Shown: positions 1 through 53,347 of the stretch, piece by piece
How positions within the stretch are numbered: the first letter of the stretch is position 1
Layout of the letters: the number at the start of each line of letters is the position of its first letter
From: Schmidtea polychroa
Lineage: Eukaryota
NCBI GenBank assembly: GCA_044892525.1
Contig: CM097885.1
Coordinates: 33,420,001-33,484,000 of the forward strand
Direction of reading: 5' to 3'
DNA length: 64,000 bases
Translations under genes and position numbers: made by a program
The notes under the pieces: generated by a model
Told to the model about the DNA's origin: nothing
The model's database searches: none
The model's input: only the letters and a program-made list of their open reading frames with translations

Positions 1-1060
1 TACAAATAAAATTTTTTCAATACAAAAATCCGACTACCACTAAAAAAGCATGGAATTTTCACACTATAGCGAGGGGGTCTCGATGGTCCTGGGATTTTCA
101 ATACAAATAAAATTTTTTCAATACAAAAATCCGACTACCACTAAAAAAGCCAAGGATTTATCAGACTATAGTGAGGGGGTCTCGATGGTCCTGAGAACTT
201 CAATACAAAAAGGTGGTCTACACTAAAAAAACGTGGTAAATTTTTTCAATTAAAGTAAATAATGGTTCTAAAAAATTAAATTACAGTAAATAATGGTCCA
301 AATTTTTCAATTAAAGTAAATAATGGTTCTAAAAAATTAAATAACAGTAAATTATGGTCAAAATTTTTCAATTACAGTAAATTATGGTCCTAAAAATTGA
401 ATTACAGTAAATTATGGTTCTATAAATCGAATTAAAGTAAATTATGGGTCTAAAAATTGAATTAAAGTAAATTATAGTCTAAAATTTAAAATTAAAGTAA
501 ATTATGGTCTAAAATTTCAATTAAGTAAATTAAGGTCTAAAATTTTCAATTAAATTAAATTAAGTCTAAAATTTTCAATTAAGTAAATTATGGTATATAT
601 TTTTAAACTTAAGTAAATTAAAGATAAATAAGCAAATTAAGGTCTAAAATTTCGATTAAGTAAATTAAGGTCTAAAATTTTCAATTAAAGTAAATTAAGG
701 TCCAAATTTTGAATTAAAGTTAATTAAGGGTCAAAATTTAAAATTAAAGTAAATTAAGGTTCTAAAAAATTAAATTAAAGTTAATTAAGGTCCAAATTTT
801 TAAATTACGTAATCAATGGTCAAATATTTTAAATAAGTAAATTAAATTAATAATTTTTAAATAAGTAATGTAATAAGCAAATTAAAGTAAGATTTTAAAT
901 TTATTAACAAAATAATAGAAGGTGTTTGAGAATTGAAATTTTTAAATGAAAATTTTTATGAAATAATTTTTCAATGAAAATTTTAAATGAAAACTTTTAT
1001 GAAATATTTTTCAATGACAATTTTAGAAAAAAAAATTTTTGAAATAATTTTAGATGGAAA
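1..1060. repeat. Left inverted arm of the pPolB element, built of tandem sub-repeats
   Basis: Outer units contain GGGTCTC..TGGTCCTGGGATTTTCAATACAAA. They are followed by many ~30-bp units of the form AATTAAAGTAAATTATGGTC-AAAATTT (~245-830) and then A/T-run units. Boundaries are approximate. Confidence 0.8.
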
Positions 1061-2283
1061 TTATGTAAATTAAGGGATACAATTTTAAATTAAAGTAATC
1101 AATGGTCTATATTTTAAACTTCTATATTCGGTAAACAAGGACTAAATTAAGTAAATAAAGGGTTAAATTAAAGAAAATTATGATTATAATTATAATTAGA
1201 TTTAAAGAATAATTACCTTTTCATTTAACACTACAGTGTTAATTCTTACCATTTTAGAATAATATTTTTTATCAAAGTTCTTATCTTGATTTATTTAATT
1301 TTAATTCAATTAATTTGAAAGATTATTTAGATACATTTTGGTGTTTAAGGTATTCATTAGTAATTATTTTTTAGAGTTGATGGATTTTGTGAATTTTTAT
1401 CATTTTCGTGAATTTCATGTGGATTGAATGAATATTAAAAAATTTTAAGTTAGTTCTAAGATAAATTTAATTAATTTCTTGATAATTGGATGCATTTTAA
1501 TTGATTAGTTTTTTAATTTTAAATAAAAATAATTTTTAATGACAGTCAGGTTAATAATCACGTGATAGGATATGACTTTGTAATAATATTTTTTTTCATA
1601 TATTTTCTAAGAATTTCATGTTGACTGATTAAAAGTTTTAATGGTGATAAATTTAATTGATAAATTTAATTAATTTCTTGATAATTTGTTAAATTTTAAA
1701 TAAAAATTAATTTTTTTTTAATGACTGTTAGGTTAATAATTAAGTAATTGGTTTAATTTTAGATGACTTTGTAATGCATTTGACTAAATAATTTTTTCAA
1801 AAATTTTCTAAGAATATTTACACATTGATGAACTTTTTTAAAAAAAAAACATCAGCTAAGAAATCAGTTAACCTTATCAAGAACTTTAAATTTACTTGAT
1901 AATTTACAGAAATAATATACAAAATTTAATTTACAGAAATAATTTACAAAATAATATACAGAAATTTATGATTAAGTTTGCTTTTATGAACAATCAATAT
2001 ATATCATCTCTAGTTAGGTATTTGATAGGTGAAATATTTGTAGTAAATAATAAGTTTATTATGTCTTTGTTACATAACTCGACTTTAGCGTCAAAATGTG
2101 TTTTTAAAATAAATTTTAATTTTAAAATACCGCAATGTAATATATTTTTCCCTACCCTTCCTTGATTTTGATTGGTTAGAATTTGTTTCTATAAACAATA
2201 ATAATCTATAAACAATAATCAATTATTAGTCACATTTAACAAATAGTTAACCTTTAAATATGAATTCTTTAATAGAAAACGTT

Positions 2284-5200
2284 ATGAATGTTCGAGAAAA
2301 AATTCAGGAATTTGGTAAATTTTAATTTATTTATTAATTAATTTATTAATTAATTTAGACATTATTAATGAAGACAATTTAAAATCGAAGATTAAAGGAA
2401 ATTTGAAAAGAAAAAGTAAACATAATTTTTAATTTATTGATTTAATTAATTAATAATTTAGGTAATACGAATAAAGAGAAAAATTATGTCAATGTGTCAA
2501 TAAATCGAAATGAAAATTTACAATGTAAGTATTGATTACTTTTTATAATTTAAAGAAAAAATAATATAATTTTTATTTAAGTAAATGTTAATATTTTTAA
2601 TTGAGTAAATTTTTATTCTTTAGTAAATAAAATTTGTAAAATAATAATAATTTGCAAATTTTTGCGTAAACATTTATTAAAATATTTCATTTAAATTATA
2701 TTTTTTTTTATTAAATTTTTATTTTATAGGTATACTTTATCCAAATTATTGTTCATCGAAAGAACATGATAATAATTGCCATTCTATAATGGAGAATTAT
2801 TACACGAAAAAATATTATAATAAAACTTATTTTATATGTCCCGTATGTAAGACTAGTGACCCTGTAACATATAACGTTTTTTATAATAAACATAAAAATC
2901 ACTTAGATAGGTTTAATTTTAAAAAAGATATTGTTTTTAAAAGACCCTCGACTATAGAAAAAAATAATACAAATAAAAAAATTAAATTAGATACTTCTTC
3001 TTTTGAATCCCAGGCTGGATTGTCTTTTGTTGAATCCCAGGACAGATTGCCTTTTGTTGAATCCCAGGTCGGATTGCCTTTTTTGAATCCAATGATGGAT
3101 TGGTTGTTGAATCCCAGGTCGGATTGCCTTTTTTGAATCCAATGATGGATTGGTTGTTGAATCCCAGGTCGGATTGCCTTTTGTTGAATCCCAGGTCGGA
3201 TTGGTTGTTGAATCCAATGATGGATTATTCACTTCCTTTGATTCTTGGGATGGATTAAATATAATACAAATAGGGGGTAATGTTCCCATAATACAAAAAG
3301 ATCTAAGGGGTACCCATCAAATATTAAGTTTAAATACTAGCGACTTAAATATAAAGGAAATAATATTTCCTGAACAATTAATTATAAAATTACGAGATAT
3401 TATTAACGAATTAGGCTCCGTCAAAATTCAATTCGGAATAACAATCGAATTTGAAAAAGACGGGGAAATAAAGGTTAATAATATCTCCAATTACGCAAAA
3501 CCTTTAACTGCATCATTTTTTGATGAAGGTATTAGGGAACTAAATGAGAAAATAACTAATATTACAGAGTTAGGAAGTAGTTGGATTATAAAAAATATAA
3601 CAGAAATCCACTTCACTATAACAAAAATAAGTAGGTTAAGTAGATTAAGTGGTAGGAGTTTCATTGAAACACCTACTTATCTAAAAAATAAATATTGTTT
3701 AATTAATATAAAAACACCGATGATTCATGTTTTTTATATAGCATTTTAGCTATTTTAAAATATGATGATGTTATTACACAATATAGAAATAGGACATCCA
3801 GTTATAATTCGACTTAGTATATAACCCGTTAGAATTACCCATGAAATTAAAAGACATTAGGAAATTTGAATCTAAAAATCCTGGCTTAATAATTAACGTT
3901 TTTTCTTATGATAATAGCAAACAATTAACAGATAATTACGTTTTAAAACATCCACATTTAGACATTATACATCGTTCCAAAGTTTTAAATGGAACTGTAA
4001 TTAATTTACTACTATTAAATAAAGGAAACAATTTCCATTACGTTGCTATAAGTAATTTAAATAGGTTACTGAATTGTGGTATCAACACTACTTGTCCTAC
4101 ACGCATAAAATCATTATGGTGCCATCGGTGTTTGAATGGGTTTAGGTATAAACACGCACTGGAAAAACATGAAATATTATGTAAACATAATCAATTAGGA
4201 ACAACTCTTTACACTTTCCCTCAAAATAAATTATTGCAGTTTACTGACTGGTCGAAAACAGTAACTCCTCCTTTTGTAGTTTATGCCGATTTTGAGGCTA
4301 TTTTACCTTCTGATAATCTTCATTTCTAACGACACATGCCAATATCTGCTGGTCTTTTACTTGTAAATAACTTTGACGGATCTAAATCTTATCAACAGTT
4401 CATATGTTTAGATTGCGTCGAGAGTTTTCTAAGTGCTATAGAGGATATAGCATTAAATAAGGTTCTTCCTTTTTATTATAAAATGAGTAGGAAACCTATG
4501 ATTAAATTAACGAAAATTGAACAACGTCAATTTGTTAGTGCATCTGTTTGTTATCTTTGTATGAAATCTATAGTCGATCCTGTTAGAGATCACGATCATT
4601 TTACGGGGAAATACTTGGGTGCAGCTTGTAGCACATGTAACATAAATAGGAAAATAAATAAAATTTTGCCTATCGTATTTCACAACTTGAAGGGATACGA
4701 TATGCATCATATACTTAAATACGGATTAAATAAATTTAAAAATTGGACTTTAGGTTGCATCCCAATAACGACTGAAAAATTTATTTCTTTGATTGCTCAT
4801 TTAGGCAAAATTAGCTTAAGATTCATTGATTCTTATCAATTTGTCAATGATTCTTTAGCTAAAGCAGTCAAAACTTTGAATTCTTTGCCTTTTACTAATT
4901 CTGCTTTTTCTGGCACTATAGTTTCTGAAAAAGGAATCTTCCCTTATAATTTCGCTACATCTTTAGATATTCTCCAAACTACTTATGAATTATCACCAAT
5001 TTGGGAGGGTGTCAATGAGCTTGAGTATGAAAAAGCTCAGGAGATTTGGGTAGAAACTAATTGCGTAACTTTATTAGATTATATGATGATCTACCTAAAA
5101 CTTGATTGTTTTCTTTTGGCTGATTTCTTTCATAAGTTTCGGTTGAAATCTATTGCTCACAATAGATTGGAACCATTGAATTATTTCGGAATTCCAGGTA

Positions 5201-6714
5201 TGTCTTGGTCTTCTGCATTAATGTCTTTAAATGAACCAATTGAGCTCATAACTGAAAACGAAATGTTTAGCTTTTATGAGGGTGGAATAAGAGACGGTCT
5301 TACTTTTGTGAATAAGCATTACGTAAAAACCGATGAGAACACCGAGTTACTATATATAGATATTAATAATCTTTATGGTTGGGCTTTAAGTCAATCATTA
5401 CCTTGTGGCGAATTTAGTTGGGTTCTTGATGGATTTGATTTAATAATGGATGAATGTAGGAATTTAAATCTTGAATCTTTGTCTTATGGATACACTCTTG
5501 AAGTTGATCTTGTAATTCCTTCTGAGCTTCATAATAAGTTGGATGATTTCCCTGTAGCTGCTGAAAAAATGAAACCTGCTGGGTCTAAGGTTGAAAAATT
5601 ATTATTAACTCATCTTCCAAAATCTAATTATGAGATTCATTGGAGATTATTAAAATTATATTTGGAACTTGGTGTTAAAGTAACACGTGTAAATAGGGGT
5701 GTAAGATTTAAGCAATCTCCAATTTTTAAAAAATATATAGATACAAATACAGAATTAAGGTCAAAAAGCATAAATAACTTAGATAAAATTTATTATAAAT
5801 TGTTAAATAACAGTTTATACGGCAAAACAGTTGAAAATTTAAAGAGAAGAATGAATCTTCGTCTTTGTACAACTGCCGGTAAATTGGTTAAATATTCTTC
5901 AAAACCGACTTTTAAAAAATCTATTAAAATAGATGATAATTTAATCGCAGCACTATTGAATTCAGATTCTATATGTTTAGATAGACCAAGTTACATTGGT
6001 CAATCTGTACTTGATCTATCTAAACTTAGAATGTATGAATTGCAATATAAGGATCTGGAATCATTTCGCAATGAGTTTAATTGTAAAATTAATATCGTTG
6101 CAGGTGATACAGATTCTTTTTTCCTCGAAGTCATTAACTGTAAACTTGAGGTTCTTTTACCTGCAATGATTCGAGATAATTTATTAGATACTTCCAATTA
6201 CAATAGTTGTCATTCCTTATATAGTAAGAACCTTGATTCTGTCATTGGAAAGTTCAAAGACGAGAATAAAGGTCTTAAATATAAGGAATGGGTTTTTCTT
6301 AGACCTAAATGTTATAGCTTGTTGGGTGATGAAGAAACAAAAAAGGCTAAAGGTGTAACATTGAAAGGTAGTGACATAAAACATCAGTCATACCTGGATT
6401 GTTATAACACTAACCAGATTTTTTCGGTTCCTCAGACTAAAATAACAAGCAAAAATCATCAAATTTTTACAATTAAAAACACAAAAATAGCACTTACTAA
6501 CAAAGATGACAAAAGGGTTTGGGTGGGGAAAAATACTAGTCTTGCATATGGGCATGTAAGATTAAGTGAATTAAATATTGGAGAAATTGTTGGAGAAGAA
6601 TTTGATGAAAATGTTGGAGAAGATGAGGAAGAATTTAATGAAGAAGATTTTGGAGATTATGTTGGAGAAGATGATATCGATATCGATGACGTTATTTTGT
6701 CTGATGAGGACTAA
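2284..6714 (+). pseudogene. polB: Protein-primed family B DNA polymerase (Polinton/adintovirus-type pPolB), disrupted by frameshifts and a stop
   Basis: ORFs 2789-3136, 3150-3749, 3841-4329 and 4336-6714 join into one protein. Motifs: ExoI YADFE, ExoII FHNLKGYD, RFIDS, KGIFPY, ExoIII YLKLD, motif A YIDINNLYG, motif B KLLNNSLYGK, motif C GDTDS. Lesions: frameshifts at ~3083, ~3133, ~3712 and ~3806, and an in-frame TAA at 4327-4329. The start at 2284 depends on predicted splicing. Confidence 0.93.
2998..3225 (+). repeat. Coding minisatellite (24/27-bp units; VESQVGLPF / VESNDGLV) in the pPolB N-terminal region
   Basis: Repeated GTTGAATCCCAGGTCGGATTG and GAATCCAATGATGGATTG units; 3071-3120 and 3121-3170 are identical 50-mers. 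Confidence 0.92.
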
Positions 6715-6722
6715 TTTTATTA

Positions 6723-6728
6723 AATAAA
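6723..6728 (+). terminator. Putative polyadenylation signal of the pPolB gene
   Basis: AATAAA begins 9 nt after the stop codon and is followed by GT-rich sequence (TTGTTATTTGTTTGG). Confidence 0.5.
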
Positions 6729-6844
6729 AGTTTATATCTATACATTTGTTATTTGTTTGGTAAAGTTTTATATTTGTTATGTGTCTAGTTCATTTTTATG
6801 TGTTTAGTTAATTTTTTATGTGTTGTAGTGTATTTGGTTGATAT

Positions 6845-6857
6845 ATTATTATTATTA

Positions 6858-6949
<92 letters not shown>

Positions 6950-6950
6950 T
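6845..6950. repeat. (TAT)n microsatellite
   Basis: Direct inspection; it explains the spurious poly-Y and poly-I ORFs. Confidence 0.97.
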
Positions 6951-8154
6951 CATAAAAATTTTCATTAAAAATTATCTTAAAAATTATTCTATTAAAATTT
7001 CCATTAAAAATTATCATTGAAAAATATTTCATAAAAATTTCCATTAAAAATTACCATTGAAAAATATTTCATTAAAATTTCTATTAAAAATTACTTAAAA
7101 ATTATTCCATAAAAATTTCCATTAAAAATTACCATTGAAAAATATTTCATTAAAATTTCTATTAAAAATTACTTAAAAAATTGTTTCATAAAAATTTCCA
7201 TTAAAAATTACCATTGAAAAATATTTCATTAAAATTTCTATTAAAAATTACTTAAAAAATTATTTCATAAAAATTTTCATTAAAAAATTTCAATTCTCAA
7301 ACACCTACTATTATTTTGTAATTAAATTTAAAAATCTTACTTTAATTTACTTATTTAACTTTAATTTTTTACCATTGATTACTTAATTTTAAAATTTGGA
7401 CCTTAATTAACATAATTAATTTAATTTTTTAGAACCTTAATTTAGTTATTTGGACCATTATTTACTTTAATTTAATTTTTTAGGACCATAATTTACTTTA
7501 TTTTAACTTCTTTAGAACCATTATTTACTTAATTTAAAAATTTGAACCTTAATTTACTTAGTTGAGCCCTTAATTAACTTTAATTTTAAATTTTGAACCA
7601 TTATTTACTTTAATTTAAAAATTTGAACCTTAATTTAGTTATTTGTGCCCATTCATTACTTTAATTCAAAAATCTTAGCCCATAATTTACTTATTTAGAC
7701 CATAATTTACTTTATTTCAAAAAAAATCTAAACCTTTATTTACTTAAATTTCATTTTTTAGACCCATCATTTACTTTATTTTTAAATTTTAGACTCATAA
7801 TTTGCTTTATTTTAAAAATTTACTATGCGTTTTTAATGTAAACCACCTTTTTCTATTGAAATTCTCATGACCAAGAAGATCCCCTCACTATAGTCTGAAA
7901 AATCCATGCTTTTTTATTGAAGACTACCTTTTTCTATTGAAATTCTCAGGACCAAGGAGACCCACCCAAATAATATTTATCCTTGGCTTGTTTATTGAAA
8001 AAAAAAATTTGTATTTAAAATCCCAGAAAACATTGGACATTACGGCAACAATTATGTAATCAAAAAATGTCTACGGGAAAAGTTATGCAATCAAAAGTTT
8101 GCAACATTTTTACCCCCCCCCCCTATTGTTGCCGTAAGCTCCTAACTACCTACT
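6950..8154. repeat. Right inverted arm of the pPolB element
   Basis: Reverse-complement versions of the left-arm sub-repeats (e.g. GACCATAATTTACTTTAATT, GGACCAAGGAGACCC), an ~80-bp tandem unit at ~7020-7290, and the terminal CTAACTACCTACT. Confidence 0.82.
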
Positions 8155-8257
8155 TTTAGCTAAAATATTTTAACATTAACAAAGTGTTATTTTACACATA
8201 TGACAATTGGACCAGAAAATTTTGTCCATTAATTTGAGGATTAATAATATATATATT

Positions 8258-9227: not shown

Positions 9228-9406
9228 TATAGGTAGTTAGTAGCCACCCCCTCCCCACAGCACGACAATCCATTGCATCCCCACCCTTAGAAAAAAGTTT
9301 TTTAATTGCTGCCTAAGGCTACATTATATTTGTAGAAATTCACACTATTGAACTAATTGAATTTTTTGTACTCAAAATCCAGCGCAGGGGCTACAAACTA
9401 CCTATT
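9228..9406. mobile_element. 179-bp miniature element with Polinton-like termini and a 6-bp TSD
   Basis: Left end TATAGGTAGTTAGTAGCC, right end GGCTACAAACTACCTATT; flanked by the direct repeat ACAGTT (9222-9227 and 9407-9412). Confidence 0.78.
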
Positions 9407-20797: not shown

Positions 20798-22785
20798 TAA
20801 TAAATGCTGATACCAAGAAATCATCACTTTTTACTATTATATTTATTATAATATTAAATTATTATTTCTAAGGAAAAAATAGAAACATTTCATATAACAA
20901 TAACTCATGGTTTAAATAATTAATTATTGTTTCATTGAAAATATTTTGAATGTGAATATCATTAAAAATTCAAAAAAAAATAATTCATTTATCTCAAATT
21001 TAATTTTCTTTGTTATAAATCAACGTAAATTGGAAATAAATATTCATTTTTAATTTTTCATCTAATATTATGATAATTATAATAATAATAAGAATAATTG
21101 TAATAATAAATGAGGACAATAGAATTTAATTAATAAATAAACAGATAAAAATATCGAGAGTCATAAGAGGAATTATAAAATTGAAAACAATAATTTTTTA
21201 GAAATATGAGCTAGAAAGTGTAAAAGAAATTATAAAAAATAAAATAATAAATTAACGGAAAGTATAATGGAATAGAAAGTAGGTTGAAAACAATACAAAA
21301 GACGAATATCGTGGCCTCTCAAGTTAATTTTGATGAAGATGAAAACTGTGATAAATCCAAAATATTTATTTCCCAAATTAAATATTCAAATTTCTATAGA
21401 ATTTGTATAATTATGAAGTGGAAAATAAGAATAGACTCTTAGAGACAATTTAAAATCATAGTAGCACTTAAAAGAGAAACAAGTGACAACAAAAATGAAT
21501 ATAATAATTATATAATTATTAACAATATGAAAAGTCGGGAAAAGAAGGTTAATTATAAAGTCAAAAAAGTCAATTATATATAAGTTTCACTTAAATTCAT
21601 CTCTCTAGTGATAAATATTTCCACATTTAGTCTTAATAACATCAAATTTTAAACCAATATTGTAATAATTGTGCATTGAGTATTATACAAAATGTCCATA
21701 AAGTTCATGTTTAAAATTAAAAATACTTGATGGCATTTCTGAAAATAAGCTCGAAAATATTTTCTTTTAGTACTAATAATACATGGTGGACATGTTGAAA
21801 ATTAATAAAAACAATAAAATATTTAAGTATTTCTTCTTTATTTTGCTTTTTACAGATTCTTTATATTGCATATGGTTAGTAAGTAGTTATTGGGGTGCTG
21901 CAGAAATTTTTTTGGTCAACGGTTACGGAACTGCTGCAGTGTGCCACACTTATTTTTTCTGGGATTTTCAAAACAAAAAGGTCCTATAGAAAAAATGCCA
22001 TGATATTTCTGACTATAGTGAAAGGGTCTCCTTGATCCTTGGATTTTCAATGCAAAAAAGGAGTCTTCAATAAGAAAGCATGGTAATTTATGGTCTTAGG
22101 ATATTTTCAATACAAAAAATAGGTCTTTAATAAAAAGCCATAATATTTCTGACTATAGTGAAGGGGTCTCGATTGATTCAAGGATTTTCAATACAAAATT
22201 CAAATTTCGATAAAAAAGCATGGGAATTCAAGGTCGCAGGATATTTTCTATACAAAATCCGACTATCACTAAAAAAACATGGATATTTCTAAATATTATT
22301 AAGGTGGGTCTCCTTGGTCCTGGAATTTCCAATACAAAATTCAATCTTCGATAAAAAGGCATGGTAAATTAATGAAAAATAGGTAAGTCAACATTTTTAA
22401 ATTAAATTATATTATGGTCTAAATTTGAAATTAAAGTAAATTATGGTCTCAAATAAGTAAATTAAGGTCAAAATTAAGTAAAGTAAATTAAGGTACAAAT
22501 TTTTAAATTAAAGTAAATTAAGGCAAATTTTATTAAGATAAATGGATAAATTAAGGTTAAATTTTTAAATTAAGTAATGAACGGTCTAAAATTTTAAATA
22601 AGTAAATTAAAGTTAAAAATTTTAATATTTTAATATTTTAAAATTAAAGTAAATTAATGTAATAAGTAAATTTCAGTAAGATTTTTAAATTTATTAACAA
22701 AAAGTTAAAAAAAAACCACTAGCTTTTGAGAAATAAAAGTTTTTATGAAATAATTTTTAAAGATAAATTTAAATGTTAATTTCAA

Positions 22786-22804
22786 TCATAATAATAATAA
22801 TAGC

Positions 22805-22890
<86 letters not shown>

Positions 22891-22925
22891 TAATAATAGT
22901 AATAATAATAGTAATATTAATAATA
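22786..22925. repeat. (AAT)n microsatellite inside the Polinton-like derivative
   Basis: Direct inspection. Confidence 0.93.
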
Positions 22926-23619
22926 ATTCTACAACCAGCTACAGTGATTTTCGAAATTTATTTTCCACTAATTATTATTACTTATTTGTTTATAAAATAT
23001 TTTTATTAAAGTGATAATATTTATGAAATAATTTTAAATAAATGCAATTAATATATATCCATTTTATTAATAACACTCCTCAGTATATTATCATTTACCT
23101 CCCGTAGTATCATTAATGAATAATTCTACCACTTATTTTCGCCATTTTGAATTTATTAATTAATTTATCATAGAGTAATGAATAATTTCCTCACTTTAAT
23201 GAAGATTCTTACCACCTGAGAATATTATTGTTAATTTGTATCTCTGTTTAAAGAATAATTATCATTCGATTTTACGCTGCTTAACATTTTAGAATAATAT
23301 TTTTATCAAAATTTGTGATAATTTGAATGATTCAATGATAAATTTGATGGAGTTAATTCGTTTTATTATATATACTCTAAGTTTAACCGACAGGGTGTTT
23401 TGTCCCCCTATGGCTACTGGTCGTAAGGATACTTGTCGTAAAGGTACTGGTATTCGGTTTTAATGATTTTATTTGAATGATTATTTGGGTATATTTGGTA
23501 TTTAAGGCATTCATTGATAATTTTTAGAGTTGATGGTTTTAGGATATATTTAATCTTGCATTTTTGTGTATTTCATGTTGATTGGAAGAATATTTAAAAA
23601 TTTTAGGTTTTAATGGCGA

Positions 23620-24818
23620 TGTTGTGTTATTGAGTTGGTGGTAAATTTAAATGTTACTCTAACTCGAAGCATGTCTTTACCTGATGCATAATAACACTTG
23701 ACAACAGAAATCTTTATTGATAATCACAAATAAACTTTCACTTTACACTGACAATCAATTCAACACTCTGCTTGGTGACTATACAATGCTTATTACAACA
23801 CTCGGTGAGGAATAGCACTTGCGTATAACACCAGATTAAAAGATCACAAATTACTGATTGGTTTATCAACTGGGACTTTAAGAAGGTTGTTTTCTTTGAC
23901 CTTCTTCACAATTTTTTAAAATAATCAAGTAACTTCCTTTCATTTAATTTTTCAACTAATTCTTTTATTCAAATTTTCTCCAACAATTGTTCTTCACAAT
24001 TATTTTCTTTAAAATTCTTTTTCACGATCGTTTCTCCAATTACGTTTCTTTCGACGTTGTCTAAATTTTCCCAATAATTTTATCTCTCAAATTATCTCTC
24101 AAAACCCACTCACAAATTGTCTCAATATTTGTTCCCACTTTTCCAAATTTTGTTCTCCTTTCGTGTCCACCAGTTTAACAGCGACATGTTCTGTTTACCA
24201 TTTTCTTTTTCCTCTACGCCAGCCTTATCTCTGACAGATATTTGACGATTGGATCTATTTTTTTAATGAAATGTATTTTGTATTTTAAATCCAGTATTAT
24301 TATGTCACTTTTATTCCCCATTATCAATTGTGGAAAGGCACATTTAATCCATTTTTGAATTATTATCTGAGTGCTCCAAAGTCTTTCAATTTTAATTATC
24401 ATTATTCCGTCAGACACCGTAATTAAATTTTTCTTTCCTTTTGTTACCATAAGAGGCACCACTTTTCACCATTTCATTTAATTGCAAATAAGATATTTTT
24501 CCATTTTCCTTTTTTGTTAAGTCGCCTTCTCCCGACATTTTCGCTATCTTTGACAAGCTGTCAAGATACGGATTTTTCCCTTATTTTGTTTTTCTGGAAT
24601 TTGAAATTCCACATTCATTTGTACCTCTTAATTAACAATGACCTTTGTTTTAATTTCTTGTTTGTTTCCTTTTATTTGATTTATCTTTCTCATTTTTAAT
24701 TTCTTTTTACTTTCGATTTCTTTTTTGAGTTCCCATAGACCGTCCCACTTGTCATGACGATCTTCCCCAAGTAATTTATTTATTTATTATGTTATTTTTC
24801 ATTTAGGTATCCTCAACC
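23620..24818. mobile_element. Solo-LTR-like insertion (TGTTG...CAACC) with 4-bp TSD GCGA
   Basis: GCGA at 23616-23619 and 24819-24822. It interrupts sequence that is continuous in the pPolB element (~1635-1680), and its 3' ~300 bp match 26925-27221. Confidence 0.68.
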
Positions 24819-26369
24819 GCGATTTTAATTGAATTTCTTGATAATTTGTTATATTTTTATTGGCTTGTTTTTTAATTTAATAATTAAATAAAAATTATTT
24901 TTAATGACAGGTTATTAATTTGAGTTTTTACAATAATCAAGTGATTGGATAAATTTTGATGATGATGACTTTGTAATGATATTGAATTTGACTAAATAAT
25001 TTTTTCAATAATTTTCTAAGAATATTTCCATTTACACATTGATGAACTTTTTAATATTAAAAATCATAAGCTAAGAAACCAGTTAACTTTATCAAGGACA
25101 GATAAAATATATTTGAAATCTACTTGAAAATTATTGTAGGATTTACTGAAATTTGTAATTTAGTTTGAAAGATATATCGGGTGATAATTGACTTAAAAGA
25201 GTTGGACAACAACTAAAGATAATTGATCTTTATTGGAGGAAATTTATCGTGTGATTTAAATTAAAAATTAAATCGGTTGAATATCGGTAAAATATAACCA
25301 TTTGAAGAAATATATTTTATTGGATGGATAAATTTAATATTTCAATGGAATCTAGTTGGTTAAATTGTACTGTAAAATTTATTTTAAATTTAGCGCAGGG
25401 AGCCACTAACTACCTATTGTGGTTTTTTACTTATGAGTATTGTAATTATATCATTTATTCTGTCTTACAAATAAATGTTAAATAAATGGTTTAAAAACCA
25501 AAAAAGCTTCATTGTTATTAAGTGTAAACATTGTTGATGTCAATATACGAAAAAGAATCAGAAAAATGAAAATTAAATTTTATTTTATTTTGTAATTGTC
25601 ATCATTGATATTTCTCAATTTCATTTTACTTTATTTTGTTTTAAAACTATCAACCAATATTTTGTTTTAATTTTCGAAATTCTTCACCTCTGTCTTTTTC
25701 ATTTGATATTAGTCAACATTTGTATTTGGTTGTGGTTTAATGGAAGCCCAAGTCGAACATGTACAATTGAAAATATGCGAATTCGTTTAAAATCTAAATA
25801 AAATTAACTCCTTGTTATAGTATCGAATTTTTAATTATTTTAATCTTTCCAAATAATACTAATTAGGAGTAAGTAAACCCCAAAGTTGGTGAATATAATT
25901 ATGAAAAATTAATTTCACATTCACGAAATTGGTTTATCGAGACAAATTTAATGATTCATTGAACATTTTTGCCGTAAATGACGTCTCAACATTTTGTAGA
26001 TTCTTTTATTTCAGTCAAGAATATAAAATCTTATTTCATTTTATTATATGATTAATATATTATTATGTGACACAAGATTATATCTGATAATTAACATATA
26101 ATATTGTTTTAATCTGTAAAATTATTTCATTCATTTAACCTTTTTGGCAGAAAATTTGGAAAAACTGTCAGTTATATGGTGCTGATTTTGAATAGTTTCA
26201 ATCAAATTATTTTCATTTTAATTAATAAATATTTTATAATAATTATTTTTTACTTTAAAAACAGTCCGGAATTTCAAATTGTTCTAAATTATCACGATAA
26301 ACTAAATTATCTTTTACCATTAAACAAAGATTTTACCTTTTTCATAAATATTTTAATAATTAAATATAT

Positions 26370-32800: not shown

Positions 32801-34990
32801 TGGGCTCCGCCCCTGTTCGCTTTGCTTCACCAACCCCGTTAGAACGTTGGAAATAATAGCGGGAAAATGATAATCATATCACGTTTGAAGAAGGGAACGA
32901 AGCGGAGGCGTTATGTAAGCATAGTACAACTATGTTATTAGAGTTTTTTAAGTTAAACATGATTGATGAATTTAGTCGAACACTTATATATGATAAACTT
33001 CCCACACACTATTGGTGGGTTGAAACATCACCTAGGGTGTGGAAGAAAAGAGAACGGGCCGTAAAAACAATAAGTCGATTGCCTGCTGTATCCCCAAAAA
33101 ATATTGAAAAATTTCATTTGAAGCTTTTACTTAGAGTACAACGGGGTATTACATCTTTCGCTGGACTTAGGACCGTTGATTGTATTGAATATGCCACAAA
33201 TAAAGAGGCAGCGATCGCGCTCAACCTGGTAAAGACTAATGAAGAATTCCCTCCAATGATGGAAGAAGCTTGTCATTTTTTTTGTATATATGCTAATTGA
33301 AGTTGAGGGTATTGATGGAAATATTCAATGGGAAAAATTCAAGAATTATCTATCAGAACATCAGACCGGTAATGAAGATATCAAAAATAACACCGCATTA
33401 CGTCTTTTGGAGATCATATTGATTAAGGAAGGTGTTACACAAGAAACATATGGTCTTCCTACTTCCTGAGTAATCATCTTATACCACAAGAGACAATAGA
33501 TGTAAAGAAATGTGAAATGTATATAAAGAAATGTACGCTCAATTTAATTATGAACATCGAGTTTCATTCGATTCCATCACTCTACAGATAGAATCCGGCT
33601 TGTGTGGTTGTTTCTTTGTGGAAAGGTCCCGCTTGGACCGGGAAAACATTTCTTTATATTGCCATAATTCAATATGCACAATCCAAAAATAAGAAAGTTT
33701 CTTCTATAGCATGGACAGGTATAGCAGCAATACTCATTCCGCTCGGTCGTACTGCACACAAGACCTTTGGGTTATCATTAGGTGATATTCAATCAGGCCA
33801 TGGTCTTAGTTGGAAGACCGCTATTAAACAACAAATATTAGAAACAGTTGTATTCATATGGGATGAAGCATCAATGATACATTCAACAACTTTGTCTGAC
33901 ATTGACAAGTCATTGAAGGATTTATGCCGATCTACTCAACCATTTGGAGGGAAATCGTTTTTATTGGGTGGTGATTTCCGTCAAGTTTTACCAGTTGTTA
34001 AGCGTGATGGAAAAGCAACCATCTTAGAATCTACCATTAGGGCCAATGAATTATGGTCAAACTTCGGTCAATTTAAACTTTCTCAAAAGTAGGGGGAATT
34101 GTGATGCTAATCCGAAATCTTATTATTACAGATGGATTATGTAATGGTACAAGATTAATTATACGTAAGATAGGGATTAGAATTTTACATTGTGAAATTT
34201 TAACTGGTGATCACAAAGGCGAAATAGCGTCTATTCCACGAATAACACTGAACTCTGCAGATGATAGATCATGTCCATTTATACTTCATAGAACGTAATT
34301 TCCGGTTAGACTTGCATTCGCAATGACTATTAACAAAAGCCAGGGGCAGAGTTTTGAACAAGTCGGATTATATCTTACACCAGCTCACCCTATTTTTGAA
34401 CATGGCCAACTATATGTGGCCTTATCTAGGTGTAGATCAAGAAAGGGAATATTAATTTAAGTATACAAAGAAGTTTTGAGTTAAAATAAATAAAATAATT
34501 TTATATTAGTTTGGCTGTTTCTTTTCTTTGTAATTGGGCAAGTCGTGGTAGATATTTAACAGGTTTACGTCTAATCCATACGTGAACATCTATAACCAGC
34601 ATTTTTGGGCCACAATACAGACACTGATTATCTTGGCCACTCAAACTAAGCATGTAAGGGTAGATATTTAATGGGTTTACGTTAAATCTGAACGTACAGC
34701 ATTTAAATCCAACTTTTTTGAAGTTCATTACCCCACAATACATGCACAGATAGTCCATGTCGTCCATATCAAGGTAATATATCAAGGTTGTCTTTTTCAG
34801 TTGTCTTTTTTTAATTTTTTATGATGTATTTATTCTTTTATACTTATCGTTCTATATTACTTTGAAATGGTTTATGTTATTATCTTTTATCATAGTTATG
34901 TAAACATATTAATAAACTGAATTTTATTCTTGTCCAACAATACCCTGGATATTAACTTTAACATTAACCCCACGTTCTAACGGGGTTATG
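32801..34990 (+). mobile_element. Internally deleted Helitron/Helentron-like element
   Basis: Rep-Hel linker and PIF1 helicase fragments bracketed by the 16-bp inverted repeat AACCCCGTTAGAACGT (32832-32847) / ACGTTCTAACGGGGTT (34972-34987), with an AACCCC..GGGGTT hairpin at the right end. Confidence 0.8.
32860..34460 (+). pseudogene. Helitron Rep/Hel PIF1-family helicase remnant
   Basis: Motifs E.FHLKLLL...G.TSF..LRTV, GPAWTGKT (Walker A), [40 protein letters not shown] and [10 protein letters not shown]. Several stops and frameshifts, plus an internal deletion at ~34088. Confidence 0.92.
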
Positions 34991-40385: not shown

Positions 40386-42297
40386 TCATTAAATAAATAC
40401 TTAGAATTATGTCGTTAACTTTTGAACACCTCACAGATTTAAATAATAAAGAGAAAATATTTAATTATCAAACAATTCTTTTAATCTAATCCAAAGTGCT
40501 AATTTTCTCATAAACCTTTTATGGTGATAAAAATACAATAAATTAAAAGCCAAGAGTTAGTTTTTGAATTAAAAGATTTAGGTTAATATTTAATTTTAAA
40601 AGTTTTATTACAATTTTAACAACATGCATTGCAATAAACTAAATTTTAAGAGACGTCAGTTAGAAAACATTAGCATTATAATCAGGCAAATTGTACGTCC
40701 CAATTTATGCAACAATTAATCAACAATGATTCTTTTCAATGCAAATCTGAAAATATTTTTAATTTTAAAAATCTTGTCTACTGCTTTTATGTTTAATTTA
40801 TATTTTGTAACTTATTTTGTTTTCTTTAGTAAAACATTATCATAATAAAAAGTTAGATTTGCAGTGAAATTAATTGTTTTTTATTATTTGTTGCAATTCA
40901 AATTTTAATTAAAATAAATTATATTAATGAATAGAATGTAAAATTATTATTTTAACAGTATTTCCGGATTCCTGATATCCAGTATCGTCTGATTTCTTGA
41001 ATGATATGCTAGAAATATGTAAATTTTAATTCATTTTCAGCCTTGAAAATGTTGAAGATTATTTTAAATTTGAAAGTTAAATATTATCCAGTAAAAATAT
41101 ACATAATTAATTGAATTGTATACGGATATTATGCCAATTACTACTAAAAGGTAATTATTTAGAGTTGGATTGAATAAGTTGTAAATAAATCTTTTAATTT
41201 GAATCATTAGAAAACATAAAAATAATCTTCGAAAAAATCTTATAATATTATAAAAAACTATTATGAATTTATAATGAAAATATATTCTAAATATTAAGCA
41301 AAATAAAAATGATGATTAAGTAACAATTGGTGTGAAAAAAAGCACACTGAGGTGCATTTTTTATAGTAAATATTTTTTTACAAATATTGTGCCCAATAGT
41401 GCTTTCATAAACTCATTGTTAACTTCTTTGAAAGTTTGCAAGTCTGTTGTTGAATCTTTCACTGCTTTTGCTGTTATGTTATATAATAAATTCAGTCACT
41501 GGCGTCTAAAGCCGTAATCAAAGTTTAATATTTAAATTACACAAATTTTAAATAATAACACAATTTTAGAAAAAAAATTTTTAAAATTATTTTCAACGAT
41601 ATTTAAGTAAAATAAATTTTTGAAAAATGAAATTAATCTTCTTATCAAGGTCTGATGTTATAAATGTAAGTAAATCATTTTTCAGCATCGTGATCCGTTT
41701 AGAAATTGAATAATTTTGCAAATTAATCCATAGGCTGAAGGATTACATTTTTTAATTATTTTATTCTGATCGTTGTTGAAATATTTTTTTATATTTATTA
41801 TAATAATTACAAGTTTTTCAATAAAATTAATATTAAAATTCAATCGATTGTTTCTAAATGTTTCAGCGTAATTGGGTTTAAATGCACAACTTAAATTACA
41901 ACTTGTTATTGAAAAATTCGAAAGTTTTTAACCCTTTGAAGGTTATTAACCTAATAAAAATCTTCGGGGTTCTGACTAAAATTTACCTCTAAATGACCTC
42001 TAAATTACCTTTTGAATGAACTATTGTTCAAAAAGATCCATTGGTGGGAACTCAGAAAATTGAAACCTTCAAATTTTTCAAACCTTATAATATATATATC
42101 AAACAAAAGATATACTCTGAGTTTATCAGACAAGATAATTTGGATATTGCTCACAAGGGTCACACTCAACATGTCGTAAGTTATTTTCAAAGTTTAATTA
42201 TTATTATTTTTTTACTGGGGGTCCCTATAATGAACAAGTACCAATATTTATTTTGTCAAATGAAAATAAATGAAATATTAGAATAAAATACAGAGCA

Positions 42298-44980
42298 ATG
42301 ATGACCAAATATCATAAAGCAGATTGTTTATTGGATACAGGAGCACGAATTAATGTGATGGCTAAATCAGTAACTGATCGATTAGAAAATATCGAGATAA
42401 TAAAAACAAGTGAATCGCTAAGATGTGCAAACAACAGTAGATTAGAAACTATGGGTAAAATAAACATCTATGTTAAAAGGGGCGATAGTGAAATAAATGT
42501 AACATTCATTATAATAAGGAATATCATACAAGAAATTATCGGAGGAGTAGAACTACAAAGGTTATTTGGTATAGAATTGAAATGTATACGAGAAGAAAAT
42601 GGAAAACGTAGTGATTTCATTTGCGAAATAGAAGCTAGATTATGGCGGATTATAACAGATGAAGAAAGATTACGTCATGCCATCTATGTTTTAAAGGTTA
42701 CCAGAAATAAGAGACTGTTAGAAATATTTCAAGCAACCAAGAACGTTTTCATGGCAGATAAATGGGATATTGGGTGTACCAATCTGATTAAACATAAGAT
42801 CATCACGAAAGGAGAGCCAATAATGATTAAACCGAGACGTCAACCAATAAATTTGGAAGACAAGATTGAAGAAGCTATAAAAAATCTAGAAAACAACAGA
42901 ATAATTAAGAAGTTTATTTCACCGTGGAACACAACTTTAGTTTGTGTATGGAAGAAAGAGAAAAAAGACATCAGGTTTTGTCTAGACTTTAGACAATTAA
43001 ACAAGATAACAGAAAGACAAGCATTTCCAATGCCAAATATTTTAGCTCGATCGACTTGGGAAATGCTTATTACCAAGTGAAGCTATATAAGGAATCTCAA
43101 GAGAAAACACCATTCTCAACAAAAGAAGGACAGTTCTGTTTGAACATGATGCCGTTCGGTATAGCAGCGGCACCAGAAACATTTCAAGAATTAATGCCGA
43201 AAGTATTGAAAGATTTGTTGAAAGATGGAAGGATGATATATTTAGACGACATACTAATATTGACAAAGACAGAAGAAGAACACTATAACGTATTTAGAAG
43301 AGTTCTAGCGAAGATCTTAACAGCAGGACTAAGATTGAACTCCGATAAATGTCAAATATTTAGGAAAGTGAAGTTAATAACGAGGCATACAAACTAATCA
43401 TACTAAGATAGAAGCAATACAATCATTTCAAAAGCCAAAATGTGTAAAGAATCTGAGGAGCTTTTTTGATATCTGTAACTATTATCAACGGTTCATAAAA
43501 GACTATACAAAGAAAGCAAGAGCACTAGAAAGCATATGCGGAAAAAACAATGAGAAAATAAGATGGACAGAGATGTGTGAAAAGGCTTTCGGGGAAATAA
43601 AAGAAGCATTGGTAACCGCCACAGCATTGGTATTTCCAGACTTCAGAAAAGAATTTATATTAGACACAGACGCAAGCTTCGATAATATTGGAGCAGTTCT
43701 TTCGCAAAAGAATGAAAAAAGGACATGAACATGTCATTGCATATGGTTCACATGTGATGAGCAGCCACGAAAAAGGATAATGCATTACCAGGAAAGAATT
43801 ATTGGCAATATGTACTATTTTTGTAAACATTTCAACCATTACTTATATGGGAAAAGATTTTCACTGAGAACGGACCATAAAGCGATTACGTTCATGGTAA
43901 CAACGAAAAAACCAATAACTGCTCAATTCCAGAATGGATCAACTATTTAAGCAGTCTGAATATTAAAATGGAATACAGGAAAGGAAAAAGCCATACAAAC
44001 GTGGATATGCTATCCAGGAAAACATGCAGAATATGTGTACAGTGTATGATGGAACACGATGATCCAAAAACCGGCAAAATTAAAACTAGAATATTAACAG
44101 TAACAACAGAAGGCGGATATAACAAGTGGCGAAATGACAACGTGGAGGTCCAAGAAATAAAGAATAAGTTAAAAATAAAGATTGTAAATTCTTAATGGTA
44201 CACGGTACTAACTAAGCAAGGTACAATATGGATACCATCAGATAATAGACAGAATATGATAAAAGAAGTGCACGTATTGCTGTGCTATGCAGGTACACAG
44301 AAAGTAATTGAGGATTGAGAACTCCGAAAGATGTCAGAAAATGAAAACGATAACAACCAAGACAAAGGAGGAAACTCAAACAGTAAAGAGTACTGAACCA
44401 TTCGAGAAGATATATATGGACATATGTGGGCCATTGAAAGAAATGTTCAATAAAAAGAAATATATTTGCGGAATCATTGACCATTATAGTAAATACATCT
44501 CATTAACGGCCATAAACAAGCAAGACGAAAAATGAATTAGTGAGACTTTATTAAATAGATGGATATTAAAGTTTGGAGCTTCAACAGAACTTCATGTAGA
44601 TTGTGGGAAGAACTTTGAAGCAAGAAGTATTAAATAACTAGCAAAGGCAGTAATCGTCTCAAGCCCATATCACCACAGCACGAATGGTATAATTGAAAGA
44701 CAGTTCAGAACAATCAGAGAGTATATTAACGCATCATCGAATGAAGGAGGAAGAAAAATCTGGGCTGATTTAGTACCAGAAATAGAATATACTTTAAATA
44801 CAACAGTTCAAAAAACAACGGGAGTAAGTCCAGCAGAGATTATATTTGGAAAGAAAATCAACATAATGAAATGGTACACGAATAAAGAAATAAATAGAGA
44901 GGATATGGAAAAGAGAATAGAGGATAAAACACTAAAGCCAAACGGAAGCAAAACAATGAGAAACTTTGAAATGGAAGATA
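42298..44980 (+). pseudogene. Ty3/Gypsy LTR-retrotransposon pol remnant (protease-RT-RNase H-integrase)
   Basis: LLDTGA (protease); SPWN, RFCLDFRQLN, MPFG and YLDD (RT); LDTDAS and LRTDHK (RNase H); PFEKIYMDICGP, IIDHYSKY, HVDCG and NGIIERQFRTI (integrase). Many stops and frameshifts; no flanking LTR pair recognised. Confidence 0.93.
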
Positions 44981-45815
44981 TCACTACGAAGTTTTAAGTG
45001 AAGTGCTGGATAACATTGAAAAGGCGGGTCTTAGGATAAACCCTGAAAAGTGTCATATCCTTAAAGAGAAAGTCAAATATTTTAAGTCACATAATCAACA
45101 AAGATGGAATACAGACGGATCCGTCAAAGCTAGACCCGATTAAATCATTTGGATAGTCAAAATGTGTTAAGAATCTGAGAAGCTTCCTAGGAATATGCAA
45201 TTACTACAGAAGATGTATAAAGGAATACGCAAAAAAGGTAAGAGGTTTAGAAGAACTATGCGGGTTAAATAACAAAAAATTAAATGGGACTGACGGATGC
45301 AACATCGCATTTGAAAATGTGAAAAATGCTTTAATGTCTTCACCTATTCTAGGGTTTTCAGATTTCTAAAGAGAATTCATTCTGGATACTGATGCGAGTT
45401 TTGACACGATTGGGGCAGTATTATCACAGAAAGACGACAACGGGTGCAAAAAGGTTATAGCATACGGTTCTCATTTACAGGTTGTTCATTACAGGAAACA
45501 TTCAGAAAGAAAAGATATATAGACACTAAGATTGATCAATTTAGCAGATATATCTCTTTGACTGCAGTCGCTAAACAGTATGAGGAAACGGTGAAGGAAA
45601 CAATACTACAAAAATGGATTCTTAGATTTGGAGCACCAAAGGAAATTCACACAGATTGTGGAAAAGTATTTGAATCTAAGACGATGAAAGATTTTACAAA
45701 ATCAATGGGAATTACACTATGCTTTTCAAGTCCATACCACCATAATACAAATAGTGTGATAGAACGTCAATTCAGGACAATAAGAGACTATTTAAATGCA
45801 TCATTAAAAGAAAAA
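44981..45815 (+). pseudogene. Second, more deleted Gypsy pol remnant fused directly downstream
   Basis: Restarts at the end of RT (HYEVL..AGLRINPEKC), then LRSFLGICNYYR and LDTDASFDTIGAVLSQ, then jumps to the integrase core (IDQFSRY, IHTDCG, VIERQFRTI). Confidence 0.88.
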
Positions 45816-46563
45816 AATTTGCAATTTAAGTATGAATGTGGTATGTTGACGGTAAGTTGATATATTTGGTTGAAATTAAAATTTATAAAAAGAAAATGTC
45901 CCAAGAATATTTGTTTATATAAGCAGATTTAATGAAATATATTTTTGGATTTATTTAGTTTGAGTAATTTATTTGATGACAGAATAATTGAATGTTATAG
46001 CATCTAACATTTCTGATATTCAAACTCTTAATAATGAACATAATAATTTTGATTAATACAGTTTTGCTCAATGAATTGTATAATGGAACTACATGAATTG
46101 ACATTTTAGACAAAAATGAATGTACAATGTACAATTAAAGATACAGACTTTGAATCTTTAATCAGTAACTATATTATAACTTACTTTAATATTCCCGTTA
46201 AATTTCCTTTAAATTGTACGAATAAACTTTAAAGTACAAATATGATTCGAAATTCAAAATACTAATAAAAAATAATGGATAAATATGAATTTAATTGTAT
46301 TCGTAGAATTCGGTTTTTAACGAAATATTTCTATAAAATAATATATAAATAATATAAATAAATCTACTAAATTTTGTTAAGATAATGAGTTAAATGATGA
46401 TATTTTGAAGAATTTATCAATCACGTTTTTAAAAAGTTTATATTCAAAGTATCTTGAAAGCTTTCTAGAAAATCTTTGTAATTTATCTTTTGATGTATTT
46501 GAAGCCTTTTCTTAAAAATTTCTAAATTCATATTTATTTGAGCTATTTTATTAAAAATGCATG

Positions 46564-49500: not shown

Positions 49501-50768
49501 ATATTGGTGGTTATTCAATCTTTTGATAATAAATTTAAAAATCTTACTTTTTTTTTTATTTACTTATTTTAAAAATTATTACTTTAATTTACTTATTTAA
49601 CTTTAATTTAAAAGTTTAGACCATTGATTACTTAATTTACAAATTTAAACCTTAATTTACCGTATTTTAGCGCATATAACGCGTGCGGTATCTGATTACA
49701 ATAAACAATAAAACCGATGGTAGGGTTACTGTCACATCATAAAAATATTTCCACTGGCAATGCCGCCACGTGTAAAATATAAATCATAAAGCGCGCACCC
49801 ACAGATACCGCGCATGGGGGGTGCACGGTTTGTAAAAATGCGTATAACGCGCGCGTTATATGCGGTAAAATACGGTACTTTAATTTTTAATTCTGGACCT
49901 TAATTTACCTATTTGAGCGCATTGATTACTTTAATTTAAAAATCTAGACCTTAATTTACTTTAATTTTACATTCATACCATAATTTACTTATTTGTACCC
50001 ATAATTTACTTTAATTCAAAAATCTGAGCCTATTATTTACTTTAATTTAAAAATTTGAATCATTAATTAATTTAATTCAAAAATTTAGACCATAATTTAC
50101 TTTATTTTAAATTTTTAGGCTGTAATTTACTTAGCTTTACTTAATTGAGCCTTTAATTTACTTTAATTTAATTTTTTAGAGTCTAAAATTTAGACCATTG
50201 TTTACTTAATTCAAAAATCGGAGCCCATAATTTACTTTAATTTAAAAATTTGAACCTTAATTAACTATAATTTAAAATTTTAGAGCATAATTTAATTTAT
50301 TTCAAAAATTTACCATGCTTTTTTAGTGTAGACTGGTATTTGTATTGAAAATCCCAGGACCAAGGAGACCCACCTTAAAAATATTTAGAAAAATCATTGC
50401 TTTTTTAGTGAAGACCACCTTTTTCTATTGAAATACTTAGGACCAAGAACCTCATCTTAATTTACTTAGAAAATTCCATGCTTTTTAGTGATAATTGAAT
50501 TTTGTATTGATAATCCCACGACCAAGGAGACCCACCTCAATAATACTTGGAAATATCCATGCTTTTTAAGTGTAGACCCTTTTTGTATTGAAAATCCCAG
50601 GACCAAGGAGACCCCCTCACTATACTCAGAGAAATAATGGCTTTTTTCTATAGGGCCTCTTTGTATTGAAAATTTTATTTTGTATTGAAAATCCCAGAAA
50701 AATTTAGTGTAGCTTACTGCAACAAGTACGGGGGGAGTATTGTTGCATGGATCTACTAACTACCTACT
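46564..50768 (-). mobile_element. Non-autonomous Polinton-like element, 4,205 bp, perfect 6-bp TSD
   Basis: AGTAGGTAGTTAG at 46564 and CTAACTACCTACT ending at 50768; TGCATG at 46558-46563 and 50769-50774. Same arm sub-repeats as the pPolB element. Internal segments are reverse complements of parts of 1130-1282 and 23145-23400. No coding ORF. Confidence 0.92.
49660..49875. mobile_element. Tc1/mariner-pogo-type MITE nested in the Polinton-like arm
   Basis: TIRs CCGTATTTTAGCGCATATAACGCG and CGCGTTATATGCGGTAAAATACGG with a TA duplication; removing it restores the arm unit CCTTAATTTACTTTAA. Confidence 0.88.
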
Positions 50769-53030: not shown

Positions 53031-53347
53031 GTTTATTATGTATAGTCAGAGTTATCATCTTAAAAACAATAGTCATTCATACATAAAGAATAAATGCTAA
53101 TATTTTTACTAATAAACGTATTTATATTAGAAATTATTATAAAAACATTTTTCGATAAAAACATTTTTGATAAAAAAATTTCGATGAAAAAAATTCTCTG
53201 TATAAAATTCTCTGTATAAAACAATAGAAAACATTAAAAATCATTTATCAAAAATGAAAACAAGAAATTATATTTTACTGATGATTTTATAATGATTATA
53301 TAGATAATTTTATAATATAAATATTTACAGTGTTTTATTTCTTTCAG

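Follow-up and report, generated by a model that had tools for sequence, protein, structure and literature searches.

A decayed polymerase-only Polinton in Schmidtea polychroa and its palindromic relatives

A 64,000-nucleotide stretch of the Schmidtea polychroa genome (contig CM097885.1, forward-strand positions 33,420,001 to 33,484,000; G000:C1:33,420,001-33,484,000 in the notation used here, hereafter the window) opens inside a Polinton-type mobile element whose single gene, polB, encodes the protein-primed DNA polymerase pPolB. The window lies within a 781-Mb genome, of which a single assembly was examined. The unit is related to a polymerase-only family whose amplified form is a palindrome of 13-16 kb with two outward-facing polB genes. 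The family shares its ends and a 6-bp target site duplication (TSD) with a gene-complete Polinton of the same genome, the helper. The palindrome arms are nearly identical and change together, polB is under purifying selection, and pairs of Polinton termini are nested at palindrome centres. In the best explanation, which we consider probable as a whole, the window unit is a decayed, half-size, chimeric copy of this family, and the family is likely integrated by the helper's integrase and likely copied by fold-back of a displaced strand.

The window unit and its palindromic family

In an initial annotation, made from the window sequence alone, a left terminus, with TTTAGC directly followed by AGTAGGTAGTTAG, was predicted one to a few hundred base pairs upstream of base 1. 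The terminus was located 280 bp upstream, at G000:C1:33,419,721, where TTTAGC is directly followed by AGTAGGTAGATAG, one base different from the prediction. The right end is window position 8154 with TTTAGC next to it, and the unit measures 8,434 bp with the 6-bp TSD TTTAGC on both sides (a chance match of the hexamer has a probability of about 3e-4 with GC assumed to be 23%). As had been proposed, there is no room for other genes: the 20 kb upstream hold no other terminus and no second polB, and the sequence does not run on into more Polinton genes. The unit was also correctly called polymerase-only, containing a single pPolB (PF03175, E 1.7e-27) and, within the unit, nothing that matches the helper's genes for integrase, ATPase, protease or capsid. 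The two inverted arms of about 1 kb that had been described are present, but as terminal inverted repeats (TIRs) they do not match each other, being about 70% alike and belonging to different subfamilies. The parts of the unit within the window are listed below, where the gene-less family is a palindromic family without recognisable genes.

1..240 (+): inner left terminal segment with repeats of about 100 bp, from the sequence; the terminus lies 280 bp upstream
241..1270 (+): left arm with satellite-like repeats of about 30 bp, from sequence comparison
1385..2179 (+): non-coding stretch, a 75-82% match to the gene-less palindromic family and absent from the helper
2284..2314 (+): polB leader exon 1 (ATG, 31 nt, phase 1); length, ATG and GT kept in 27/27 copies
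2359..2415 (+): polB leader exon 2 (57 nt), kept in 26/27 copies
2462..2524 (+): polB leader exon 3 (63 nt), kept in 26/27 copies
2730..6714 (+): pPolB main coding exon (PF03175), with its acceptor AG in 25/27 copies
6723..6728 (+): AATAAA directly 3' of the polB stop codon, a putative signal from the sequence
6944..8154 (+): right arm with the terminus (...CTAACTACCTACT), 90-95% similar to the polB palindromes' outer ends
8155..8160 (+): right TSD copy TTTAGC, from the sequence

The region 5' of the main exon had been taken as non-coding, and this did not hold: it contains the three small leader exons, which are free of stops and conserved in length and splice sites across 27 polB copies. One contig, from run X10, which is only guessed to be RNA, removes the intron at 2416-2461 (GT..AG) exactly. 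The same contig retains leader intron 1 and departs from the window sequence after exon 3; splicing of the leader into the polB main exon was not seen in this single informative contig, and its continuation beyond exon 3 was not found in searches for it. The window copy is disrupted, as had been noted, by frame changes near 3123-3154, 3671-3713 and 3808-3811 and by a stop at 4327-4329, unlike most family copies, in which the polB frame is open. A Pfam scan missed two full-length polB frames yet matched their shorter piece, which is a filter effect.

Sequence relationships along the unit point to a chimera. Its left 500 bp resemble gene-less or helper ends, and the closest relatives of its left terminal segment are the ends of gene-less units or of one helper-derived copy. 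The remainder resembles the right half of polB palindromes, and the left arm matches their inner arm at 82-88%, rising to 95% along a portion of it in one copy. The copy itself is non-palindromic.

The extent of the family, whose element ends read AGTAGGTAG, was gauged with exact probes. These gave 5,046 termini (0 for a control probe), 1,025 polB sites (169 of them with the helper-type allele), 325 integrase sites and 2,928 sites of the gene-less family; the figures are exact matches rather than copy numbers, and inner termini are counted too. Among the first 100 polB sites of C1 (0-56 Mb), 54 form 27 divergent pairs with a spacing of 5.7-10.9 kb, with no convergent pair and one tandem; 13 have a same-strand integrase 8.6-12.9 kb away, and 33 are other singles, the window copy included. 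One palindrome spans 15,926 bp; its 7.4-kb arms are 99.1% alike, both of its 1,339-aa frames are open, and its TSD is GGATTT. Of eight further pairs taken by position, seven were covered in full and the eighth in part; the seven form palindromes of about 13.3-16.3 kb with arms 96.8-99.6% alike, and a strict end pattern found the TSD in three of them. Whole polB palindromes with matched TSDs have arms 97-99.7% alike, and their ends are the Polinton-type ends that the autonomous family also carries, with a 6-bp TSD. Integrase is absent from the polB palindromes, as it is from the window unit. The initial annotation had asked whether 8-kb polymerase-only units recur with different TSDs; polymerase-only units do, whereas the 8-kb monomer is not the amplified form.

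A survey of 21 elements, picked within the first 11.9 Mb by pairs of ends separated by 7-18 kb, placed these palindromes among their relatives. Two were gene-complete, six were polB palindromes (two of them chimeric and lacking a matched TSD) and nine were gene-less palindromes; the rest were two gene-less units of 7-8 kb and two elements with capsid or integrase genes and without polB. Members of the gene-less family reach 17.5 kb and contain no open reading frame (ORF) of at least 150 aa save two repeat-like frames. Translated comparison of this family with the helper gave only short low-complexity matches; spliced genes may be present.

Several further arrangements were seen among family members. 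Two young palindromes (L033-L035 and L036-L038) sit inside other, more distant Polintons, and nesting of Polintons within Polintons appears frequent. In element m (L074:8518 to L075), one polB arm is interrupted by an inserted element with an 869-aa frame, the scanned part of which has no Pfam match. A tandem array at L166-L167 (C1:0.985-1.005 Mb), whose repeat unit of 4.4-4.6 kb combines the polB leader with the region of the palindrome centre, falls in a cluster of 16 unpaired polB sites at 0.36-1.36 Mb.

The helper, selection on polB and palindrome centres

The complete Polinton encodes an ATPase of the A32 type, an rve integrase whose gene has a 42-nt intron, adenain, pPolB and a small TBP-like protein (L087:1988-2500, minus strand; PF00352, E 5e-16; 123 relatives in public data). 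A 408-aa frame was modelled with a pLDDT score of 92 as a double jelly-roll fold that matches capsid proteins of PBCV-1, iridovirus, Sputnik and mavirus. Two minor-capsid-like ORFs, without Pfam match, were named by position alone. Matched TSDs flank seven of ten sampled copies, which are 16.3-17.9 kb long; two more complete copies occur in the 21-element set, and the mean length over nine copies is 17,059 bp. The helper's ends are the same as those of the polymerase-only family. These shared ends and the common TSD length are why we think it likely that the helper's integrase mobilises polymerase-only copies in trans. The suggestion that the window unit is helper-dependent is supported: it lacks integrase and capsid genes, and a complete element with the same ends is present in the genome. 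The alternative offered alongside it, a segment of a multipartite system, fared differently, since gene-complete units with matched TSDs and the same ends exist in the same genome.

Helper and window polB differ by 4.3% at the DNA level. Likeness to the helper is missing from the leader exons, from the region upstream of them and from the first 400-600 nt of the main exon. Because the leader is foreign to the helper while the remaining polB is close to it, the polymerase-only family is a chimera that still exchanges the rest of polB with the helper. A window-type leader beside capsid genes was found neither in 10 integrase loci nor in four elements of the 21-element set, and 10 helper loci, chosen with the helper-type probe and checked for helper proteins only, gave no complete element with such a leader. 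One helper-derived copy does bear the shared non-coding stretch after its protease gene. Two other observations concern the helper's relatives: an 11.2-kb TSD-flanked copy (L097-L098), built from the helper's own polB half and a partial second arm, is a possible independent fold-back product, and a related Polinton family (L115-L116, L121-L122) has 66-83% DNA identity to the helper and the same gene order with different ends.

The two arms of a palindrome change together. Across 60 polB copies, the two arms of one element differed by 0-0.27% in each of the 17 pairs, whereas the median differences from other copies were 2.3-3.2%; on the polB tree, arms grouped with their partners. In 16 elements, 561 variant sites were present on both arms and 22 on one arm. 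The arms nevertheless retain a few differences and unlike repeat counts. Elements with one shared centre bear polB of different lineages, on both arms, and one of these lineages is near the helper's. It follows that the palindrome arose once per centre type and that both arms were rewritten later.

The selection test suggested by the initial annotation revealed purifying selection on polB in helper-dependent copies. Changes common to at least two elements had a nonsynonymous to synonymous ratio (N/S) of 32/95 (57 copies, 38 elements), where neutrality predicts 2.7-4.0. Half of the 57 copies had been picked by protein likeness, and the count was therefore repeated on 26 position-chosen copies: shared N/S was 28/80, and private changes were 70/30 plus six stops (Fisher p 2e-10). 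With codons seen in 13 helper copies dropped, shared N/S in the 26 copies was 16/39. One-arm changes (17/2) fit neutrality, whereas both-arm private changes (19/17) do not (Fisher p 0.008), as expected if the arms are equalised during rounds of replication.

Palindrome centres come in more than one form. In type 1, found in 29 pairs among the first 100 of 266 sites, the family's own ends form a fused pair of 200-300 bp, with the same flank in inverted orientation to either side of it; its folding gives a long hairpin (z -26, expected of an inverted repeat). Type 2 is an element of 0.4-1.2 kb with another family's ends and inverted flanks. A single copy has lost its spacer. Gene-less palindromes have a third centre, 0.9 kb long and without Polinton ends. 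The two centre types of the polB palindromes would imply at least two fold-back origins.

These features can be drawn together in a proposed replication cycle. A short internal inverted repeat can direct repair of a displaced adenovirus strand into a palindrome. Here, a short nested element would have supplied the internal inverted repeat. During protein-primed strand displacement, the displaced strand would have folded at this repeat and extended itself, duplicating the polB half and dropping the other half. In later rounds the displaced strand may snap back into a half-length hairpin whose free end resembles a normal origin, so that one arm templates the other. Copies still making pPolB would amplify better, which would keep polB under selection, while the integrase would come from the helper and co-replicating genomes would recombine into chimeras. 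After insertion, palindromes would lose one arm or the centre and become relics of 8-11 kb. In the window unit, a gene-less-family left end and the right half of a polB palindrome presumably met at 30-bp repeats that both contain, whether the junction formed before insertion or a longer hybrid was later shortened by deletion; this unit is most likely a one-off.

Weighing the explanations

Several points count against the fold-back account. Support for it comes from assembled contigs, in which no extrachromosomal or hairpin DNA was seen. The window copy is not palindromic, and its chimeric form could have arisen before or after insertion. One-third of the sampled polB sites (33/100) are neither paired nor beside integrase, 16 of them in a rearranged cluster that was only sampled. 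The centres of gene-less palindromes lack Polinton ends, which means that palindromes can exist without a nested terminus pair. The sampled helper is not the source of the polB leader or of the region preceding it, and the parent of that part was not found. Arm identity may be inflated by assembly polishing or chromosomal gene conversion, and low shared N/S could partly be imported by recombination from unsampled helpers (13 of about 169 helper-type sites were sampled).

Palindromes might instead have been built and kept in the chromosome, by break repair at inverted repeats and arm equalisation through conversion or polishing, with polB playing no role. Hosts are known to build long palindromes at breaks from short inverted repeats and to convert one arm by the other, and chimeric copies without a matched TSD (a, m) and the reliance on one assembly fit such an origin. 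We regard it as unlikely: the same centres occur at many loci with different TSDs, so that palindromes move as such, and the assembly resolves the arms, which hold a few differences and different repeat counts. Changes on both arms are also short of amino-acid changes, unlike the products of neutral conversion, and polB is selected. A different reversal of the fold-back account would make the 8.4-kb monomer an active, linear-plasmid-like replicon and the ancestor of the palindromes. A perfect TSD around two unlike ends is most simply explained if the unit inserted as it is, and its left-side layout is also seen in gene-less monomers of 7-8 kb (q, u, C4:47.0 Mb). We searched for the window unit as a recurring monomer and found no similarly built copy among 13 left-end relatives, fetched from the 40 best left-end matches, or among 12 fetched unpaired polB sites. 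The 13 relatives comprised 11 gene-less units, one helper-derived copy and one with nothing within 10 kb, hence no polB monomer, and three of the 12 unpaired sites are TSD-flanked units of 8-9 kb with remnants of a second arm or centre. Such remnants are kept by the short polB units other than the window's. Units of 7.1-9.6 kb make up 9 of 39 TSD-matched ones, in a sample biased by 10-kb fetches, and distance to the nearest relative falls as size rises (15 polB units, Spearman -0.85). The window copy, for its part, is disrupted, and its nearest relative differs from it by 1.45%. An active monomer thus seems quite improbable to us.

A multipartite Polinton, with polymerase, integrase and capsid genes on separate, mutually dependent units, is very improbable. 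Complete elements with the same ends exist, and therefore no gene set is split across obligatory segments. Integrase or capsid units without polB, about which the initial annotation had asked, do occur: an 8.15-kb TSD-flanked unit (l) carries ATPase, integrase and capsid genes without polB and a 15.2-kb hybrid (i) also lacks polB, but each is single and the two are differently built. Among the first 100 integrase sites, 60 lack a helper-type polB probe within 21 kb; the other 40 do have a helper-type polB, at a distance of 8-20 kb, and complete copies occur commonly. When 10 integrase sites were fetched from the 60, most turned out to be decayed, nested, or from related families with more distant polB; a clean TSD-flanked capsid-only unit was not seen among these 10 further loci, a small sample.

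The fold-back account could be extended by an add-on concerning size. Young polB palindromes have 78-96% of the mean helper length. Among the first 100 termini (first 11.9 Mb) there are 37 adjacent end pairs, of which 23 are under 21 kb and none below 7 kb; 14 of the 23, two of them helpers, fall within 75-105% of helper length in this small sample from one chromosome arm. This clustering near helper length is a hint of capsid size selection. In adenovirus, genomes smaller than 75% or larger than 105% are described as rearranging, and 15-kb vectors as packaged in the form of direct and inverted dimers (PMC4189039, available part). By analogy, palindromes might stay near helper length because they are packaged in helper capsids, an 8-kb genome being too short and dimerising. 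Elements of the gene-less family (2,928 probe sites) retain lengths of up to 17.5 kb even though, two repeat-like frames aside, they have no ORF of at least 150 aa, and the 179-bp relic in the window does not belong to an amplified family (13 candidates, the others 68-82% alike), so a small amplified form resembling miniature inverted-repeat transposable elements is not supported by that comparison. On the other hand, doubling a natural 8-kb polB monomer would give 16 kb by coincidence, TSD-flanked units of 7-9.6 kb and 4.2 kb do occur, which may or may not have inserted at that size, no packaging signal common to helper and satellites was found beyond the terminal arms, and the reading draws on genomic sizes from that small sample of one arm. 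We therefore put it forward tentatively, as a possibility that is somewhat doubtful. With the same reserve, the families might be natural, heritable gutless or snap-back genomes, in which half-size genomes dimerised to fit the helper capsid, in tiers of helper, polymerase-only dimer and gene-less dimer. If so, the range of sizes would serve as genomic evidence for a packaging step in Polinton transposition within one animal, the co-evolving arms would record a fold-back replication intermediate, and particle-protected DNA should be rich in palindromes of 13-17 kb.

The rest of the window holds three older short elements (the relics of 0.18, 3.5 and 4.2 kb), host exons and candidate fragments of other elements; several elements lie between the two innexin-like exons.

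9228-9406: 179-bp relic with degenerate Polinton-type ends and TSD ACAGTT; no close sisters in the genome
9450-10241: innexin-like host exon (PF00876, E 8.6e-51)
21878-25418: shortened gene-less-family member (3.5 kb), by sequence comparison
32860-34092: candidate Helitron helicase fragment, named by eye
42274-45860: candidate Gypsy-type pol fragment, named by eye
46564-50768: shortened gene-less-family member (4.2 kb) with TSD TGCATG, by sequence comparison
53316-53759: innexin-like host exon, judged by eye
58659-59941: candidate reverse transcriptase fragment, named by eye

Comparison with known systems

Polintons are widespread and ancestral to several virus groups, and their replication intermediates are inferred. 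A family with two jointly changing 7-kb arms records how Polinton DNA is copied. The family shares with Polintons/Mavericks its pPolB, AGTAG-type ends and 6-bp TSD, and its helper has the integrase, ATPase, adenain and capsid genes; the window unit has the pPolB of an autonomous Polinton and lacks the integrase, ATPase, protease and capsid genes. Published Polintons are given as 13-25 kb with TIRs of 100-1500 bp, and their virions as not observed, in the accessible part of a 2023 preprint (10.1101/2023.08.22.554363). Here, by contrast, the inverted repeat takes up almost the entire element (6-8 kb per arm) and contains the whole polB twice, and the family has been amplified to hundreds of sites with polB selected in the absence of integrase or capsid genes. 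Partial precedents have been described, as far as the available sections of the sources extend: polB-plus-TIR remnants without integrase in C. elegans (10.1101/2024.01.15.575659), and, in butterflies, mobile copies lacking polB and 2-kb TIRs that hold hexon and adenain twice (10.1101/2025.02.07.637071). No whole-length palindromic or two-polB Polinton was found in the literature searched, outside which fell Repbase reports and most subscription papers. Such palindromes can pass for fold-back artefacts of long reads or be collapsed during assembly.

Snap-back defective viral genomes are likewise helper-dependent palindromes from one parent end, in the portion available (PMC13506859); they are described mainly for RNA viruses and as non-coding. 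A near-complete palindrome of one parent end is found in the family and not in the window copy. The lack of coding capacity is found in the gene-less family and not in the polB palindromes, with their two open polB frames under purifying selection. The polymerase-only family differs further in being DNA, integrated in the germ line with TSDs, arranged in long-lived lineages and encoding a selected polymerase. Gutless adenovirus vectors resemble it in having protein-primed linear genomes that need only their ends in cis, and in the conversion of half-size genomes to inverted dimers near wild-type length, as the accessible text has it (PMC4189039). Those vectors, however, are laboratory constructs that are not integrated and whose packaging has been shown, whereas packaging of the family is inferred.

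Yeast and fungal linear plasmids such as pGKL1 and kalilo also have a pPolB, which is fused to a terminal protein, and lack a capsid. For linear plasmids, deletion forms with a hairpin or inverted-dimer structure were reportedly described by Kikuchi in 1985. The family differs from these plasmids in being nuclear, with spliceosomal introns and precise integration, and no free form of it was seen in the contigs. Cytoplasmic linear plasmids are said, in the available part of one preprint, to derive from polintons through loss of the capsid module (10.1101/2024.03.18.585575). A selected polymerase in elements that are unable to integrate alone would be an intermediate between a virus and such a capsid-less plasmid.

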